A stretch of DNA of 15,328 nt, counting the filler, from an uncultured virus (IMG/VR IMGVR_UViG_2061766007_002127) (taxonomy: Duplodnaviria > Heunggongvirae > Uroviricota > Caudoviricetes). It is 2 parts of one record of this genome, joined end to end, with 100 filler letters (N's around TTAATTAATTAA, not from the genome) between each part and the next. Parts side by side here need not be neighbours in the genome. Positions count along the whole stretch, not along the records: positions 840 to 15,328 come from IMGVR_UViG_2061766007_002127; 1 more part is not named here. One strand, 5' to 3'. Shown here in pieces: positions 2,088-14,825 of the stretch (positions are counted from its first letter, which is position 1; every line of letters starts with the position of its first letter). The notes beneath the pieces are model-generated. The model saw only the letters and a program-made list of their open reading frames with translations, was not told the DNA's origin and did not search any database. Made by a program: the position numbers and the translations under genes.

Positions 2088-3336
2088 ATGTCAAGCAAAG
2101 GTATTGCGACTACAATCACGGTGTGCGTCAGTCTTTTCGTGGCGCTGGTCATCTCATGCATGTTCATCCACAAGAACAACATCTCGCAGTTGCAGGTGAT
2201 ACAGTCCTTCACTGGAAAGACATCGGTGAAGACAACGGGAGGCATTTATTTCAAGATGTTCCCGACAATCTGGACGTACAACAAGACGAACCAGGTCGCC
2301 TTTTCGTTCGAGAAGGACGAGTCCAAGGACAACGACGGCGTGCATGTGTTCTTCAGCAACAAGGGGCAGGGAGATGTCTCGACTCAGGTCACGTACAACA
2401 TCCTTTCCGAGGAGGAGAAGGTATACAAGATGCACGAGCTGGCGAAGGGCGACGACGACGTGATAGACCGTCGAATCCTTGCGACAATCCGTGAAATCAC
2501 GATGCGCGAGGCTGGTCTCATCACCAGCTCCGAGGCAATCGAGAAGCGCGAGGAGTTCGCCAACAAAATCAGACAGCAGTTGCTGCACAACCCCGACTAT
2601 CTCGCCATCGGCGTGGACATCACGCAGTTCACCATCACGAACATCTCGTTCGACGACCTGACCATTCAGGCGTACAAGAAGGCGCAGGAAGCCGACTTGC
2701 AGAAGAAGACGGCAGAGGCTGAGAANNNNNNNNNNNNNNNNNNNNNNNNNNNNNNNNNNNNNNNNNNNNNNNNNNCAACAGGTCGCTGAATCCAAGGGCA
2801 AAGCCGAGGTCGAGAAGATGAAGGCGACGACCGATGCAGAGCGCGAGAAGGAGCTTGCAGAAATCAAGGCGAAGCAGGAGGTCGCAGTCGCAGAGCTGAA
2901 CAAGGAGAAGGCAATCATCGAGGCTAACAAGTTGCTTGAGGTCGCCGAAATCCAGAAGAAGGAGGAGCAGGCACGGCTGGAGGTCATCAGGATTCAGGCT
3001 GAGCAGAAGGTCGCTGAAGCCGAGGCGAAGAAACAGCAGATTGAACTTGCTGGCGACATTACGGAGAAGGATAGGTTCGAGCTGGAAATCCAGATGAAGA
3101 CAAAGGTCGATGTGGCGAAGGCTATCGCGCAGGGCTTGAACGGGATGAAGCTTCCGACAACGTTGTTCATCGGGGCGAACGGTGGTGGTGGCAAGGCTGG
3201 AAACGCGCTCGACTATCTCATCAATCTTCTTACCGTCCAAAAGGCTAACGAGGTGTCGAAGGCAGAGCCGATTGGCAAAGGGATGTATTCCAGTGGAATC
3301 ATGCTCAACGACATTAAGCGCGAGGCTGCTGAATAG
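2088..3336 (+). CDS. SPFH/band-7/flotillin-like membrane protein (one gene split by the N gap at 2726-2775)
   Basis: AGGAG RBS; N-terminal TM helix; GGIYFKMF and ...IGVDITQFTITNISFDD SPFH-like segments; long A/E/K-rich coiled coil (AEREKELAEIKAKQEVAVAE); C-terminal LPTTLFIG-GGG. The frame changes only across the gap. Confidence 0.8.
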
Positions 3337-8715: not shown

Positions 8716-9229
8716 ATGGAGAAGGAAGGTTTCATGACTGAAGGAATCGGGCATCTGGTCGGCGAGGAGCTGAAGAAGCCAGTCCTGTATTCGGTGTTGC
8801 CAGACGGAACGGAGGTACCGTATGACGAGAGGGATGTCCAGATTGTTGTAATCGGGAGGCTTGTCGGTATCGAGAGGTGCCTGAACGGCATGTACGCAAC
8901 CGTNNNNNNNNNNNNNNNNNNNNNNNNNNNNNNNNNNNNNNNNNNNNNNNNNNNNNNNNNNNNNNNNNNNNNNNNNNNNNNNNNNNNNNNNNNNNNNNNN
9001 NNNNNNNNNNNNNNNNNNNNNNNNNNNNNNNNNNNNNNNNNNNNNNNNNNNNNNNNNNNNNNNNNNNNNNNNNNNNNNNNNNNNNNNNNNNNNNNNNNNN
9101 NNNNNNNNNNNNNNNNNNNNNNNNNNNNNNNNNNNNNNNNNNNNNNNNNNNNNNNNNNNNNNNNNNNNGTTCAGGAGGGAGAGGCTGGAACTGGCAGAGA
9201 AGCTTAAGAGGAGATACGAGAATGGATGA
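8716..9229 (+). CDS. Hypothetical protein(s), largely lost in a 265-nt gap
   Basis: Open frame before the gap; after it, FRRERLELAEKLKRRYENG* ends at 9229 overlapping the methyltransferase start. Could be one or more genes. Confidence 0.5.
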
Positions 9230-9947
9230 CGACGGGATTCAATTATATCATGGGGACTGCTTCGAGATTATGTCTGGCATCCCAGACGGCTCAATCGACC
9301 TCGTGGCGACCGACCCACCCTATCTGATAGATGTCCACAATGGTGGGGGGATGTACGCCGACAGGAGCATGCAGTCTGCGATAGACGAGCTTGAGACGAG
9401 CGACATCAACGAGTCGTATGACATCTTCAGGTTCGCAGACATGCTGGAGCCGAAGTTCAGGAACGGCATAAACGCCTACTTCTGGTGCAACAAGAGGCAG
9501 ATTTACGACTACCTGAAATGCTACATCGACGGTCACGGATGCAGGTTCGAGATTCTGAAGTGGTTCAAGCAGAATGCGATACCGAACTACTCGAACAAGT
9601 ACATGACGGACACCGAGTACTGCCTGTACTTCTACAACGGGGCAGGGCACTGCCATCCAGAGTCGTACACGGACGCATCGACGCTGTTCGTCGGGAGCAT
9701 CAACCAGTCCGACAAGAAGGCATACGGGCATCCGACCATCAAGCCCCTTGCGTTCATGGAGAGGATGGTCAGGAATTCGAGCCTTGAGGGGGAGACCGTG
9801 TTCGACCCGTTCATGGGCTCTGGGACGACGGGTCTGGCGTGCAGGCTCCACAACAGGAGGTTCATCGGCATCGAGAGGAACGACGGGTACTTCGAGATGG
9901 CTAGGAAGAGGATATACAGGATAGGGGAGCAGGATTTCCTGTTTTGA
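9222..9947 (+). CDS. DNA methyltransferase, beta class (N6-adenine/N4-cytosine)
   Basis: GDC start motif, IDLVATDPPY catalytic motif, HPTIKP, VFDPFMGSGTTG SAM-binding motif, FIGIE; motif order is beta class; GAGGAG RBS. Confidence 0.95.
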   Translation: MDDDGIQLYHGDCFEIMSGIPDGSIDLVATDPPYLIDVHNGGGMYADRSMQSAIDELETSDINESYDIFRFADMLEPKFRNGINAYFWCNKRQIYDYLKCYIDGHGCRFEILKWFKQNAIPNYSNKYMTDTEYCLYFYNGAGHCHPESYTDASTLFVGSINQSDKKAYGHPTIKPLAFMERMVRNSSLEGETVFDPFMGSGTTGLACRLHNRRFIGIERNDGYFEMARKRIYRIGEQDFLF

Positions 9948-9952
9948 CGAGA

Positions 9953-10662
9953 ATGAAGATAGGAAGCGACATTGAGCTGTTGCAGGGCGACTGCCTTGAG
10001 CTGATGAAGGGGATTCCAGACCATTCGGTGGACGCAGTCATCTGCGACCCGCCTTATGAGACGACTGCGTGCGAATGGGACAGGGCTTTGCCAGTGGCGG
10101 GGCTCTGGGAGCAGTACGACAGAATCATCAAGCCGAAGGGCAACGTGGTGCTGTTCGGCGCAGGGCTTTTCGCGTACAGGCTGGCGCTGTCGAACGAGAG
10201 GAGGTTCAGGNNNNNNNNNNNNNNNNNNNNNNNNNNNNNNNNNNNNNNNNNNNNNNNNNNNNNNNNNNNNNNNNNNNNNNNNNNNNNNNNNNNNNNNNNN
10301 NNNNNNNNNNNNNNNNNNNNNNNNNNNNNNNNNNGAACAACCTGAAGTACGGAATCGGGGGCGTCGCGACCGACAACAAGGGGACGAGGCATCCGTCGAC
10401 CGTACTGGACTTCCCCCAGAAGTGGCGCAGGCAGGACCAGGTTCATCCCACCCAGAAGCCAGTCGAGCTCATGGAGTGGCTCGTGAAGTCGTACTGCCCG
10501 CAGGGGGGGCTTGTCCTTGACAACTGCATGGGCTCTGGCACGACTGGAATCGCATGCAGGAACACTGGCAGGAAGTTCATCGGAATCGAGATGGACGAGG
10601 GGTACTTCGAGATTGCGAGGAAGAGGATTTCTGGCGAAGGCGAGCAGGAGACGCTGTTCTGA
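9953..10662 (+). CDS. Second beta-class DNA methyltransferase (split by gap 10211-10334)
   Basis: GDCLELM, VDAVICDPPY, HPTQKP, VLDNCMGSGTTG, FIGIE. Confidence 0.93.
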
Positions 10663-10675
10663 GCAGGTGGATGAG

Positions 10676-10948
10676 ATGAAGAGAAGATACGGCATGTGCC
10701 ACGAGTGCGACAGGATGATGTCGTGCTGGCAGGACGGGAAGGAAATCGGGTGCTTCTGCCGTCAGAGGGAAGTGGAGCCTTCGATGAACATTAGAATCGA
10801 GAACGGCGAATTTGTCATGTACGGTGGTCGCACGAAGGACAGCGTAATCTCGTCGAGGGAGAACTGGGATTCGCTCGACGTGCCTCGCGACTGCGAATTC
10901 TACGCGGAGCGCTTCATGGAGGAGTGCAATGAAGAGAAGATACAATGA
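10676..10948 (+). CDS. Cys-rich array protein 1
   Basis: MKRRYGMCHEC...GCFC...VPRDCEFYAERFMEECNEEKIQ. Confidence 0.85.
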   Translation: MKRRYGMCHECDRMMSCWQDGKEIGCFCRQREVEPSMNIRIENGEFVMYGGRTKDSVISSRENWDSLDVPRDCEFYAERFMEECNEEKIQ

Positions 10949-11162
10949 CTGCAGGAAATGCGACAAGTTCAGGCACGTGTACAGCGCGTTGGACGGCAAG
11001 TGGCTTGTGAGGTGCATGGCGACGAGCTGGAGCGAGGGTGGCGTGTCGTTCGAGGAGATTCTACGCGACAAGGAGGAGGAGTGGAACGGCTCCGAGCTTC
11101 CCATTGAATGCGTGTACTACGCAGACAGGTTCGTGGAGGAGTGCAATGAAAAGAAGGCTTGA
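10929..11162 (+). CDS. Cys-rich array protein 2
   Basis: MKRRYNDCRKC...VRC...LPIECVYYADRFVEECNEKKA. Confidence 0.85.
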   Translation: MKRRYNDCRKCDKFRHVYSALDGKWLVRCMATSWSEGGVSFEEILRDKEEEWNGSELPIECVYYADRFVEECNEKKA

Positions 11163-11385
11163 CATATGCAGGAGGTGCAGTTGCTTCAGGCGCGTGTCGA
11201 GAAAAAGCAACATGGGGAACTTGTACTGTTTCCACGAAGCCTTCTTCGACGGCAATGGCGATGAAATAGGCGTGGCGTGGTTCAACTTGCATCACAGCCA
11301 CGACTGGAACAAGGCAGACATCGCAGAGAATTGCGACTGCTATGCAGAGTATTTTGTGGAGGAGTGCAATGAAAAGAAGGCTTGA
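11146..11385 (+). CDS. Cys-rich array protein 3
   Basis: MKRRLDICRRC...LYC...IAENCDCYAEYFVEECNEKKA. Confidence 0.85.
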   Translation: MKRRLDICRRCSCFRRVSRKSNMGNLYCFHEAFFDGNGDEIGVAWFNLHHSHDWNKADIAENCDCYAEYFVEECNEKKA

Positions 11386-11599
11386 TGTCTGCAGGAGGTG
11401 CAGGATGATGGAGCCATGCCCTCACTGGGAGGGTCAGAAGCCTTCCTATCTGTGTGGAACATACCAGGAGGTGCGAGGGAACATGATATTCATCGAGGAC
11501 AACATCACGGAGGAGGAGTGGGTTCGCAGGGAAGTTCCAGACGGATGCGACATGTACGCAGAGTACTTCGTGGAGGACTGCAACAATGCTGAAGCGTGA
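11369..11599 (+). CDS. Cys-rich array protein 4
   Basis: MKRRLDVCRRC...YLC...VPDGCDMYAEYFVEDCNNAEA. Confidence 0.85.
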   Translation: MKRRLDVCRRCRMMEPCPHWEGQKPSYLCGTYQEVRGNMIFIEDNITEEEWVRREVPDGCDMYAEYFVEDCNNAEA

Positions 11600-11850
11600 T
11601 TTCAGGAAGTGCAAGACGTGTGGCAGGTTGCGCGAGGTGATGGTGTTCGACTCGGAGCTGCATTCCTATTTCTGTGGCTCNNNNNNNNNNNNNNNNNNNN
11701 NNNNNNNNNNNNNNNNNNNNNNNNNNNNNNNNNNNNNNNNNNNNNNNNNNNNNNNNNNNNNNNNNNNNNNNNNNNNNNNNNNNNNNNNNNNNNNNNNNNN
11801 NNNNGTACGCAGAGTACTTCGTGGAGGAGTGCAATGAGGAGAAGGCGTGA
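11586..11850 (+). CDS. Cys-rich array protein 5 (gapped; the gap could hide further units)
   Basis: MLKRDFRKCKTC...YFCG [gap 11681-11804] YAEYFVEECNEEKA*. Confidence 0.75.
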
Positions 11851-12094
11851 GATATGCGGCAGGTGCAGGTTCCTGTTCAACGGCGCAGGGGAAGGTGGCA
11901 GGAGGTATGCGTTCTGCATGAACACGGATTTGCACGGGAGCAGCGCGTTCTACGAGGCTGTCGCCAAGGCGAATCCAGCCAACTGCCCCGAGGACGAGTT
12001 CTTCGGGAGCGAACACGACGAGGATGTATTCTCGGAGTGCCCGTACAAGGCAGAGTATTGCCTGATAGAGTGGAACAATGAAAAGAAGAATTGA
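11834..12094 (+). CDS. Cys-rich array protein 6
   Basis: MRRRREICGRC...AFC...FSECPYKAEYCLIEWNNEKKN. Confidence 0.85.
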   Translation: MRRRREICGRCRFLFNGAGEGGRRYAFCMNTDLHGSSAFYEAVAKANPANCPEDEFFGSEHDEDVFSECPYKAEYCLIEWNNEKKN

Positions 12095-12302
12095 CATATG
12101 CAGCAAATGCGAGCAGTTCATAGAATGGAAGGAATATTGTCCAGGCTCCATGTCGTGTGGTTGCATCTATTCCGAGATGGTTTTTCCTTTCAAGATGACG
12201 AGGAACGAATTCCTTGGCAGGGATGTCCCCGACAATTGCATGATGAAGGCAGAGTATTGCTTAATTGAATGGAACAATGAGAAGAAAATTGGAGATATGT
12301 GA
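12078..12302 (+). CDS. Cys-rich array protein 7
   Basis: MKRRIDICSKC...SCGC...VPDNCMMKAEYCLIEWNNEKKIGDM. Confidence 0.85.
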   Translation: MKRRIDICSKCEQFIEWKEYCPGSMSCGCIYSEMVFPFKMTRNEFLGRDVPDNCMMKAEYCLIEWNNEKKIGDM

Positions 12303-12490
12303 GAACTGCAGCCAGTTCTATTCGTTTGCGACGTGCAGGAAGACGGTGTGCAGGCTTGCTGGAGGCGAGATGGCGAATCCAGTTCTCAGGGACATCAATA
12401 TTCCGTTCGAGTCGAGAAAGGTTCCAGAGAACTGCGTTTTCCTTGCAGAGCAGATGATGGCGAATTTTAATGAAGGAGAAGNNNNNNNNN
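12277..12490 (+). CDS. Cys-rich array protein 8 (stop presumed in or near gap 12482-12491)
   Basis: MRRKLEICENC...TVC...VPENCVFLAEQMMANFNEGE. Confidence 0.8.
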
Positions 12491-12940
12491 NCCTGTTCGA
12501 GGCGAAGGCTGACGTGGTGATGCACCAGTGCAACTGCATGTGCGTCTGGGGGGCGGGGGTAGCCGTCAGAATGAAGGAGGTGTTCCCAGAGGCGTATCAG
12601 GCAGACATGGCGACAGGCGCAGACAAGTGGAAGTTCGGTGGCACCAGCCACGTAGAGATAGCGCGTGAGAACCCGATGGGCGTGAAATGGGTCTACAACC
12701 TGTACGGGCAGGNNNNNNNNNNNNNNNNNNNNNNNNNAGTTCGAGAGGGCGTTTGCTCAGGCTTTGTGGCAACTGGACAGGAAGTATCCCGAGCACTGCG
12801 AGATTGCAATACCGTATCTGATTGGATGTGGACTGGCAGGNNNNNNNNNNNNNNNNNNNNNNNNNNNNNNNNNNNNNNNNNNNNNNNNNNNNNNNNNNNN
12901 NNNNNNNNNNNNNNNNNNGTACAGGCTCGTTAGGGATTAG
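12470..12940 (+). CDS. Macrodomain protein (Poa1/TARG1/DarG-like ADP-ribose processing), three internal gaps, end approximate
   Basis: MKEK..LFEAKADVVMHQCNCMCVWGAGVA...FP...VYNLYGQ, and in the post-gap frame IAIPYLIGCGLAG; both are macrodomain signature loops. Confidence 0.88.
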
Positions 12941-13038
12941 CCTCCCGAACGGCTGGTCATTTTCCGTCTATTTTCAAGCGCTATTCAAGGTACAATATGA
13001 AAGAAGGAGAAAATTGTTTCTAAGATAGGTTTTGGGAG

Positions 13039-14825
13039 ATGAGACAGTCGTCATTGGTATTTTTCGACCCGTCGAAGCAACTTGTCGTCTCGAGGGACAA
13101 CAGGTTGCCAGCATTGGACGGGAGCAGTCTGACGTGCATCAAGCCGTCGAGCGTCAAGATTTGGTTCACGACGGAGAACTCCGACAGCGTGATATGGGAC
13201 GAGGGGCATGAGGTCGCCACGGTAGCCCACGGTCTCGGATGCTTCCCGATTGTGTCGGTGTTCGACGAGGAGGGGGAGCAGTTGTTCCCGACCATCACGC
13301 TGATAGACGGTCTGTCGTTCACGATGGACTTCGGCGAGGAGGTCTACATCCCGTCTGGTCATCCGTGCTGTTGCGTGGTCGGATATCAGAGCGACTACGG
13401 CGATTCCACTGGCGAGCACGANNNNNNNNNNNNNNNNNNNNNNNNNNNNNNNNNNNNNNNNNNNNNNNNNNNNNNNNNNNNNNNNNNNNNNNNNNNNNNN
13501 NNNNNNNNNNNNNNNNNNNNNNNNNNNNNNNNNNNNNNNNNNNNNNNNNNNNNATGCAGGGCGCGACATTGATGACTGCCTTCGTCGACAATGGAACGGC
13601 GTCCATTCAATGGAACGACGCGCCAGCCTACTCTACTGGGTACGGAAGCGTGTCGACGTGGAAGTCGACGATTCTCGTCGCAAGCTACAGCCATCTGCCA
13701 GAGTCGGTCGACGACGGGGAGGTTCTTGTCGAGAACACGGTCAGGGACGCATACTCGTCGACCCCGTTCACGTTCGAGATGGAGCACGACGCCGTGTTCA
13801 TCAGGCTGTTCACGAGGATGTTCAACGACTCGATTTCGCCCTTGTCGCTCTCTCCTGGTCAGCAGTTAATCAACGTCGTCATCGAATCGCTCGGCGACTT
13901 CATGGAATACCTGAGGGACGGGGAGGTCGACGTGCTGAGGTCGGTGTATCCAGTCGGCTCTACCCTTCCGTTCGTGTCGCATTCGGAGTACACGCTCATG
14001 ACGTATCTGATTGGTCACTACGACTACACTGGCAACTACAATACGGTGTCCGACTATCTGAACGACGAGAACAGGTCGCACAACGTCATCCTGATACCAG
14101 CCACGGGCATCGCTGGCTCGAACGGGAACAGGATAGTAATTCCATACGACCTGTACGAGAAGACGAGCGCGTTGAGCCAGGACACGTCGTTCGTGTCTGG
14201 CAAGACGTACTACACGACGAACCAATGCACGTCTGCGTACAACGTGAACAACGCGCAGGAAGGGGACACGCCAGTTTCCCTCGGTCTGTACGAGAAGGGC
14301 AGGATAGTCACGGCGAACACGGGCTACGGCGTGTACGAGGAGTCGTTCATGAGGCAGTTCCTGACGAGCGACGCCGCGTCTGGGTGGTACCATCCACGGA
14401 ACATCTTCGAGCCTGCGTCCCATACGTTCGCGTCGAACCACGCTGGCTTCCTCTACGGTCTTGACTCCACGACGAAGTCGTACATGCATCCTGCGAGGAA
14501 CATGTACCTGACGTACAGGAACGTCCAGTCAATCGTGTACGACGCAGTGTTCCTCCCGAACAACTTCATGTTGATGAGGAGCGACGAGAACGGGTTCGGT
14601 CAGCAACTGGAGTACTTCAGGAGGATGACGACGAACGCGCAGAGGATACAGAGGGACCCGAACGGCGCAGCGCTGTACGCATGGTCTGGAAGCCAGGCGA
14701 ACCAGCCGAACAAGCCAGAAAACCTGATAAACCTGAGCACGGAGGGCGCGTGGAGCGTTGCAGGCAAGCTTGAGGGAGGTTCGAAGCAACTGGACGGAAC
14801 GGTTCCGTTCCTGTGCCTCGCATGA
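13039..14825 (+). CDS. Putative tail-fibre/receptor-binding protein with DUF6273-like C-terminal domain (one gene split by gap 13422-13553, or two genes)
   Basis: N-terminal VAHGLGCFPIVSVFD motif typical of phage structural proteins; W-x2-T...P-x4-DG...Y module; DTSFVSGKTYY; then YEESFMRQFL, GFL, DAVFLP, LEYF and terminal GTVPFLCL resembling DUF6273-type domains (recognised by eye, not searched). Confidence 0.6.

Follow-up and report, generated by a model that had tools for sequence, protein, structure and literature searches.

A tandem family of small four-cysteine protein genes joined by borrowed-stop overlaps in an uncultured phage

A repeat recurring between short genes was analyzed in the window, a stretch of DNA of 15,328 nucleotides (nt) from an uncultured virus (IMG/VR record IMGVR_UViG_2061766007_002127). 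The initial annotation, made from the sequence alone, had presented this repeat as a dual-coding junction that could turn each unit into a swappable, self-expressing cassette. Our results indicate that the repeat probably marks the joints of a tandem multigene family, whose members encode uncatalogued four-cysteine proteins, are joined via overlaps in which the upstream gene borrows its stop codon from the downstream one, and would together form a repertoire directed at the host. The source is probably a very large, uncultured phage found in animal-gut metagenomes, its phage nature being based on the PHROG matches, the IMG/VR record and the CheckV estimate.

The array and its protein family

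Reading of positions 10600-12700, with translation of each candidate start, demonstrated eight head-to-tail, co-oriented paralogs of 74-90 amino acids (aa) between 10676 and about 12481. The first of them, g0 (10676-10948, on the + strand like all the others; 90 aa), starts with MKRRYGMCHEC, ends with ..FMEECNEEKIQ and is matched by the hidden Markov model (HMM) of the family at E 1.3e-21. It is followed by g1 (10929-11162, 77 aa), g2 (11146-11385, 79 aa), g3 (11369-11599, 76 aa), g4 (11586-11850), g5 (11834-12094, 86 aa), g6 (12078-12302, 74 aa) and g7 (12277-12481), which ends within the masked run 12482-12491 or beyond it and whose orthologs have 69-75 aa. The seven successive junctions (J1 to J7) overlap by 20, 17, 17, 14, 17, 17 and 26 nt. 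All seven had been recognized in the initial annotation, but the array starts earlier than was proposed there, with g0 as an eighth gene, and g7 carries it to about 12481.

At each of the seven window junctions, the ATG begins at base 2 of an AAT codon. The ends of both g1 and g2 read GAG GAG TGC AAT GAA AAG AAG GCT TGA, and the +1 frame of the same DNA gives ATG AAA AGA AGG CTT GA., i.e., MKRRL(D). The sequence GGAGG stands 6-9 nt 5' of five starts (10929 to 11834) and is absent before 12078 and 12277. In these respects the earlier description was borne out by reading and translation: the overlap lengths and the ATG placed in AAT at every window junction, the dual reading (E-E-C-N-E-K-K-A-stop over M-K-R-R-L-D) at the ends of g1 and g2, and the Shine-Dalgarno motif intact in J1-J5 and eroded in J6 and J7.

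At the DNA level, the junction 22-mer GAGGAGTGCAATGAAAAGAAGG occurs four times at up to three mismatches, in comparison with no occurrence in 200 shuffles. The repeat search returned junction repeat families of 46-73 nt, with neighboring copies spaced by 199-253 nt and 60-83% identical; between J2 and J3, an exact 30-mer is shared and the identity over 72 nt is 83%. The reference copy (11109-11180, + strand) contains the codons for the C-terminal helix and for MKRR..CxxC together with the overlap, and the other copies lie at 10892-10963, 11332-11403, 11554-11599, 11797-11868, 12047-12119 and 12246-12318. The junction repeat is made up of the conserved C-terminal helix of one gene and the conserved MKRR..CxxC start of the gene that follows it.

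In an alignment, the seven readable products form a single family with an MKRR-x3-C-x2-C start, a variable center and the C-terminal motif [D/E]VPxxC-x3-AEY-x3-E-[C/W]-N. Four cysteines are conserved: two form the CxxC near the start, one is located mid-chain and one belongs to the VPxxC motif, giving the spacing C-x2-C-x15-C-x26-C. The center varies both in sequence and in length, from 10 to more than 60 residues, and the C-terminal helix (AEYxxxEW/C-N) is conserved. A 16-member profile retrieved 173 clusters at E<=1e-3 among 1.84 billion protein representatives, nearly all of them 63-105 aa long. In the alignment of 146 members, C8, C11 and C54 were invariant, and C27, E59 and N66 were conserved in at least 90% of sequences. 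The AlphaFold2 model built on this alignment (pLDDT 86, pTM 0.70) predicts a short turn at the N terminus, two strands and a helix that are likewise short, and a long C-terminal helix of residues 57-72.

Searches for known relatives of these proteins were largely negative. No window member matched Pfam, and in the Pfam hmmscan of the 146 members at E<=1 no family was matched by more than two members among the 25 of 56 families listed. NCBIfam gave no family match, and PHROGs gave only a weak N-terminal match of five of the 146 members to phrog_13558, a family of unknown function (best E 2.3e-4). The best match of the PDB sequence profile had an E of 0.054, Foldseek returned 0 matches at E<=1e-3 against PDB and likewise against BFVD, and the exhaustive VIA fold search reached a best Z of 2.7. 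DUF6171 (PF19668), a lead from the ESM-Atlas with a score of 0.85, was rejected, being absent among the families listed by the hmmscan of the 146 members. No description of the family or of such an array was found in a literature search. The four conserved cysteines, which would come together from the two ends of the chain, suggest a zinc- or metal-held scaffold displaying a variable loop, and they are the only basis for such a proposal.

The window contains 21 masked N runs (e.g., 8904-9168, 10211-10334, 11681-11804, 12482-12491). For two of these runs, the number of letters in related contigs differs from the number of skipped positions (167 for 124 and 138 for 127), therefore reading frames across masked runs are not trustworthy. 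The body of g4 is hidden by the run 11681-11804, its C-terminal part being matched by the family HMM at E 7e-4. In the window as it stands, the two ends of g4 are in different frames, and a related contig with 138 letters for the window's 127 positions would yield a single frame of 276 nt. The stretch 9900-13300 has no promoter-like site, terminator-like matches in or near the array were weak ones only, and no Rfam family was matched in the window. As all genes here are on the + strand, a single transcript with the flanking genes is likely.

Related loci and the junction rule

A scan of JGI metagenome contigs yielded five related loci (L001 to L005), all sharing the window flanks. The upstream flank with DNA methylase genes (window 9221-10608, L001 3726-5179, L002 1-661) is 70-82% identical, and the downstream flank with a macrodomain-like gene (window 12494-12840) is 72-79% identical between the window and L001, L002, L003 and L004. 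The family HMM gave 8 hits at E<1e-3 in the window, 5 in L001, 10 in 9 genes of L002, 20 in L003, whose array reaches the contig edge (at least 20 copies), 33 in L005, and 5 more in L004 beyond the part common with L005. Positions 1-2829 of L004 equal 7282-10110 of L005 at 100%, and the 42.8 kb IMG/VR record L082 equals L005 1-5596 at 99.98%; L004, L005 and L082 therefore belong to a single phage, whose array has at least 38 domain copies in about 11.7 kb. The L082 record is 13% complete by CheckV according to IMG/VR, giving a genome of about 330 kb if this estimate is right.

The content of the arrays differs as well as their size. With an ortholog-like cassette defined by at least 60% identity over at least 70% of the length, the window shared 1/7 cassettes with L001, 1/7 with L002, and 0/7 with L003 or L005; L003 and L005 shared 1/19, and L001 and L002 4/5. 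The colinear orders are ..g5 g6 g7 in the window, a b(=g5) c(=g6) d e in L001, and a b x y z d w e g7 in L002, g5 being the ortholog of L001 b and L002 b'. The arrays differ by the gain or loss of entire cassettes. The genes are under purifying selection, dN/dS being 0.12-0.37 in all eight ortholog pairs from the window, L001 and L002 (overlapped codons left out).

Some members depart from the single-domain plan. In-frame two-domain genes of 207-213 aa are present at L003 4518-5159, L004 2083-2706 (= L005 9364-9987) and L005 3749-4375, with a degenerate C-terminal block in the first unit. This fusion is conserved, because the first units of the L003 and L004 copies are 80% identical at the DNA level over 310 nt. 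Two family stretches were found in 9 of the 150 listed database matches. At L002 1601-1780, a 59-aa "minimal" member was seen, with the conserved start and end joined and almost no variable center; it is followed, with a 38-nt overlap, by an atypical member without MKRR (MISVCRKC..). The L082 record (G001) also carries at 28.5-32.2 kb a second, weaker family-like cluster (E 5e-12 to 3e-4), which precedes the main array by about 6 kb.

Few further loci were encountered. GenBank phages gave no DNA match to the array and no tblastn match for two neighboring proteins. In IMG/VR, the profile scan confirmed nothing and the exact junction pattern was found in 0 stretches; a degenerate pattern was present in 120 stretches, and family members in 1 of the 120 loci scanned (L082). 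The 67 pattern matches in GTDB genomes, obtained with two peptide patterns, included none that could be confirmed, and gave no evidence of a prophage or cellular copy.

The rule by which the genes overlap was surveyed at 61 junctions between adjacent members in five arrays, following the family HMM scan of the related loci. Overlaps of 17 nt prevailed (28 junctions), followed by 4 nt (ATGA, 13 junctions), 20 nt (4), 14 and 38 nt (3 each), and 23, 26 and 29 nt (2 each); overlaps of 16, 32 and 47 nt were met once each, as was a 26-nt gap with no overlap. The start codon stood in the context AATG at 28 junctions, GATG at 28, CATG at 4 and TATG at 1. The placement of the ATG in an AAT codon, stressed in the initial annotation, is thus the rule within the window, but the relatives also use GAT or other codons. 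The downstream gene lies in the +1 frame at 47 of the 61 junctions, and the remaining 14 use the other frame.

In the 17-nt type, the upstream stop codon is made of the last base of downstream codon 5 and the first two bases of codon 6, reading xxT GAx, i.e., [L/I/R/P][D/E] in the downstream gene. The third base of codon 5 was T in 35 of 57 canonical-start cassettes vs 11.7 expected from the codon usage of neighboring genes, an approximately three-fold enrichment, and this T creates TGA in 29 cassettes, TAA in 4 and TAG in 1. The downstream gene retains the synonymous T of codon 5 to provide the upstream gene with its stop, a DNA-level constraint that neither protein requires. The overlap makes the genes modular, as each of them carries the stop codon for whichever gene precedes it. 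The rearranged junctions all keep the overlap, because the next cassette supplies each gene's stop codon and tail.

Accordingly, the residues after the conserved Asn follow the downstream neighbor and not the gene body: g6 and L002 e', both located upstream of g7, end with ..NNEKKIGDM, and the L001 ortholog of g6, located upstream of d, ends with ..NNEEKD. The MKRR motif is intrinsic to the family, because it is present also in g0, which is preceded by a methylase gene and not by a family member. The dual coding is therefore real but lopsided, the MKRR.. frame carrying the function and the ..EKKA tail being mostly a passenger. For annotation, this is a warning that the C-terminal tails are by-products of the neighbor, not functional motifs.

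Outside the overlap, the synonymous codons of conserved residues vary family-wide (Ala GCA 14, GCG 7, GCC 6, GCT 5; Pro CCG 12, CCA 11, CCT 6, CCC 5; Val GTC 16, GTT 9, GTG 7), in a tally in which a minority of rows was mis-indexed by trimming. Within the window, the shared codons are largely predicted by the strong codon bias (TGC 94%, TTC 91%, AAG 89%). Since synonymous sites vary freely off the overlap, the DNA repeat is mostly explained by the protein ends, codon bias and the stop-codon constraint. A Shine-Dalgarno match of at least 5 nt was present in 6/8 window genes and in 15/77 genes over all loci, with no 4-nt match in 40/77. The embedded Shine-Dalgarno motif is a local property of the Glu-Glu-Cys-Asn subtype, and the self-expression proposed in the initial annotation would therefore depend on coupling via the overlap. 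As a separate observation, Lys2 is encoded by AAA in 20 and AAG in 12 members and Arg3 by AGA in 32 and AGG in 6, the background preferring AAG (83-89%) and AGG (44-48%). These A-rich codons 2-3 may serve initiation and not the upstream tail, because the A-rich start occurs also in g0, where it overlaps no family gene.

Recombination traces, neighborhood and possible function

Evidence of exchange between lineages came from a four-way DNA alignment and the identities of its segments. The core of g6 (12102-12254) is 95.4% identical (146/153) to L001 c, vs 75% for the first 24 nt of g6 and 58% for its tail. Around it, g5 is 68.3% identical to L001 b, and the methylase 3' ends of the window and L001 are 76.2% identical. 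The tail of g6 (from 12255) is 93.8% identical to the tail of L002 e', and g7 is 91.0% identical to L002 g7'. Identity switches within the codons for MKRRIDIC on one side of the variable center and, on the other side, within those for MKAE in the C-terminal helix, both in conserved blocks. In agreement with this, dS was at least 1.0 for g5 vs 0.27-0.30 for g6 and g7. Judged from this alignment, g6 appears to be a mosaic, in which at least one variable core moved between lineages via crossovers in the conserved ends.

Contigs from three other studies (X3, X4 and X7) bridge J6 and J7 around g6 in the window order: X4 record 12 covers 10771-11677 and 11805-12840, X3 record 6 covers 11805-12383, and X7 records 18 and 19 bridge both junctions. 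The mosaic is therefore not an accident of the window assembly. Consistent with this, g6 orthologs in the databases occur with either kind of tail (P0009 and P0010 vs P0007). The crossovers map to the roughly 70-nt conserved block and not specifically to the 17-30-nt dual-coding core. The idea of swappable cassettes put forward in the initial annotation stands over evolutionary time, with regard to the copy numbers of 5, 8, 9, at least 20 and at least 38 in one slot, the few cassettes shared between arrays, the insertion and deletion of whole cassettes and the g6 mosaic. Nothing shows that the repeat exists for recombination, the conservation of the DNA being mostly accounted for in the ways given above.

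The array is flanked upstream by two N6/N4 DNA methyltransferase genes (8877-9947 and 10069-10662, spanning 8877-10662 on the + strand), common to L001 and L002. Downstream there is a partly masked macrodomain-like gene (12493-12933, + strand), common to L001-L004 and closest to the DarG DNA ADP-ribosyl glycohydrolase domain (NCBIfam E 2.5e-9, below the whole-protein cut-off; PDB 5e3b E 1.1e-5). Also near the array are a PPAT/NMNAT-type adenylyltransferase-like gene, for which the models were all below cut-offs, and a fusion of a nucleoside 2-deoxyribosyltransferase-like domain with a metallophosphoesterase (these genes at L004 5968-7116 and L001 597-1805). The adenylyltransferase-like and deoxyribosyltransferase-like genes are candidates for nucleotide- or NAD-related counter-defence.

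Several further features of the surroundings were recorded. L001 has three methylase genes in a row, and an X3 contig joins 10628 back to 9950 (going back 679, with 36 other letters between), which suggests that in a related strain the paralogous DNA methylase genes are differently arranged or present in an additional copy. An SPFH/Band-7 protein is encoded at window 2088-2789 (Pfam E 3.4e-14), followed by a gene at 2818-3336 matching the other half of phrog_11908; the pair resembles a single phage family in a split or two-gene form. A piece of an SPFH gene is found also about 2 kb upstream of the array in L082, and that record encodes in addition an NAD-dependent DNA ligase and a Mom-like DNA modification protein.

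We propose that units are gained and lost when the conserved end blocks of the array undergo unequal homologous recombination; as these ends are homologous, frames, stops and overlaps would be preserved in any such event. Ribosomes would move on to each following gene via termination-reinitiation at the overlap, probably helped in this window by the GGAGG written by the Glu-Glu codons. The proteins may be zinc-held scaffolds, in which the conserved helix and ends would form the core and the differing center would be displayed as a loop. Together, the paralogs could form a long-lived set of binders that target host proteins, most likely in counter-defence or host take-over. The counter-defence reading is drawn from the neighboring DNA methylases, DarG-like macrodomain and adenylyltransferase, combined with the lineage-specific sets of diverged paralogs.

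Small binders or inhibitors acting against host proteins, in counter-defence or take-over, seem the most likely role of these products, a tentative assignment to which we give somewhat less than even confidence. A bolder version, with a recombining heritable library of zinc-held mini-scaffolds in very large gut phages (5 to at least 38 per genome in the loci studied), each loop set against a different host defence or protein, and the dual-coding ends serving as universal handles for the trading of cores between co-infecting phages and for the correct termination and translational coupling of any new pair of neighbors, appears doubtful. If true, it would represent a viral repertoire system with a logic like that of cassette-based variation but with every cassette expressed. 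If the host-directed multigene family holds, an undescribed family with a confidently predicted fold that matches nothing in three structure libraries has expanded to dozens of copies in uncultured large gut phages, and would offer tractable natural small binders for screening against bacterial defence systems.

Alternatives and comparison with known systems

Several points weigh against reading the array as a recombining, host-directed family. The guilt-by-association argument for counter-defence is weak, the family has no Pfam, NCBIfam or fold match that could bear on its function, and the stretches examined yielded neither a capsid nor a terminase gene. For both L001 and L002, the arrangement comes from one metagenome contig, in which chimeric assembly at a conserved end is possible. 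Junction-to-junction deletions or variants, suggested as a check in the initial annotation, were not found in the contigs of four other studies, mostly 90-99% alike, which showed the window order and no junction-to-junction joint; of three joints listed in them, two are at masked runs and one is in the methylase region. This implies that rearrangement is slow, evolutionary and not ongoing, the comparison having used Logan contigs, which drop rare variants and leave them invisible, with X8 spanning the flanks only (9/30 bins). Finally, within-array paralogs are at most 48% identical (the one pair at 100% is a nested-ORF artefact, ORF standing for open reading frame), so there is no sign of recent amplification.

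The best within-array match was a neighbor for 6/7 window genes (p 0.0035) and for 9/36 in L005 vs 2 expected, as would be expected for local duplication, and orthologous centers are conserved between arrays. Altogether, these comparisons suggest that the arrays are old, maintained repertoires changed by occasional recombination, and not transient accordions or switching devices.

The recombination traces could also be explained if the dual-coding junction were a dedicated handle, selected for frequent gene addition, deletion or swap as in programmed cassette systems. The exact 30-mer of J2 and J3 with 83% identity over 72 nt would be enough for phage recombinases, cassette indels and core exchange break in the conserved ends, the array content turns over much faster than the flanks, and the junction geometry survives each rearrangement seen. 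We nevertheless consider such a handle unlikely. The synonymous sites of conserved residues off the overlap vary about as codon usage predicts, with no DNA-level homogenization, and most junction pairs share short exact matches only. Neither the absence of variant joints in the contigs of four studies nor the age of the paralogs (<=48% identical) and the purifying selection on orthologous cores agrees with frequent swapping, and the ORFs scanned beside the array included neither a recombinase nor an integrase.

With regard to function, the main alternative retains the same array but makes its products nucleic-acid-binding zinc fingers, acting as regulators of transcription or replication or as partners of the methylases. 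Such a role is rather improbable in our opinion, as no zinc-finger family matches more than 2/146 members, despite weak single matches of isolated members to zinc-finger models, and no fold match of the model to zinc ribbons or treble clefs was found. The four conserved cysteines, the basic MKRR start, the Lys-rich tail and the two or three adjoining DNA methylases would all suit it; however, a conserved regulatory task would not ordinarily involve 5-38 regulators with hypervariable centers and lineage-specific sets.

A +1 frameshift or read-through joining the units into a polyprotein, already regarded as less likely in the initial annotation, is without support and very improbable. An ATG of its own and the conserved MKRR start are present in each unit, even in g0 after the methylase. 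The downstream gene does lie in the +1 frame at 47/61 junctions, but 14 junctions use the other frame and one has no overlap; a few database proteins and three locus genes do carry two family domains, but the two-domain genes are plain in-frame fusions whose domains are connected by linkers. Neither a slippery site nor a stimulatory structure was noted, and there was no Rfam match. The chance that the repeat-spacer look at the DNA level, in a metagenome-type record with many masked runs, reflects assembly collapse, a CRISPR-like array or a satellite is negligible, since the array was reproduced in independent contigs from four studies, the units are all open frames with dN/dS of 0.12-0.37, and copies 60-83% identical, spaced by 199-253 nt and separated by coding "spacers" under purifying selection are unlike the near-identical repeats of 23-50 nt and non-coding spacers of 25-70 nt that define a CRISPR array.

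The tandem multigene family with borrowed stops, which we prefer, was finally compared with known types of array. It agrees with a tandem viral multigene family (birth-and-death array) in having at least three co-oriented adjacent paralogs and in the copy number and content that differ at a syntenic site. A genomic accordion, in the sense of recent adaptive amplification, was rejected, as there are no near-identical copies and within-array identity is <=48%. Polymorphic toxin or orphan immunity arrays were set aside because a single small family is involved and no toxin or immunity family was found in the Pfam, PHROG and NCBIfam scans. Precursor arrays of ribosomally synthesized and post-translationally modified peptides (RiPPs) do not fit, there being no modifying enzymes nearby and both ends being conserved instead of a leader; secreted toxins were discarded because the sequences showed neither a signal peptide nor a hydrophobic stretch, and a target of a diversity-generating retroelement (DGR) because the ORFs scanned included no reverse transcriptase. 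As for integron-type cassettes, no integrase was present among the 16 window ORFs scanned with Pfam, and no attC search was made.

The multigene families (MGF) 110 and 360 of African swine fever virus and the genomic accordions of poxviruses consist of head-to-tail paralogs in a variable region, differ between strains and are presumed to interact with the host. The array resembles them in its head-to-tail paralogs and in the copy number and content varying between relatives. It differs in that the viruses, hosts and proteins are unrelated, and those genes are not known to have a conserved out-of-frame overlap supplying the upstream stop. In the vls system of Borrelia, cassettes for antigenic variation are flanked by short direct repeats. 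Like these, the orphan cassettes of contact-dependent inhibition (CDI) and Rhs systems (PMC3482391) are similar to the array in being variable modules bounded by conserved sequence that permits homologous exchange. Such systems rely on one expressed locus with silent or orphan cassettes, and on toxin-immunity pairs in the case of CDI/Rhs, whereas the units of the array are complete, separately startable genes, and the toxin and immunity domains of CDI/Rhs are absent from the array family.

The closest phage parallel is the tifA "accordion" of T4, in which, according to PMC9391042, the copy number of a small gene is changed by short-homology recombination in a setting of host conflict, gains being balanced by losses in the headful-packaged genome; a related paper on T4 amplification is PMC13096335. 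The two cases are alike in the segmental amplification or deletion of a small phage gene via short homology. The T4 amplicons are reported to be recent, near-identical and transient, whereas the array copies are old and form an ortholog-conserved standing repertoire. The array represents a novel protein family in a known kind of system, with an unusual conserved borrowed-stop overlap.

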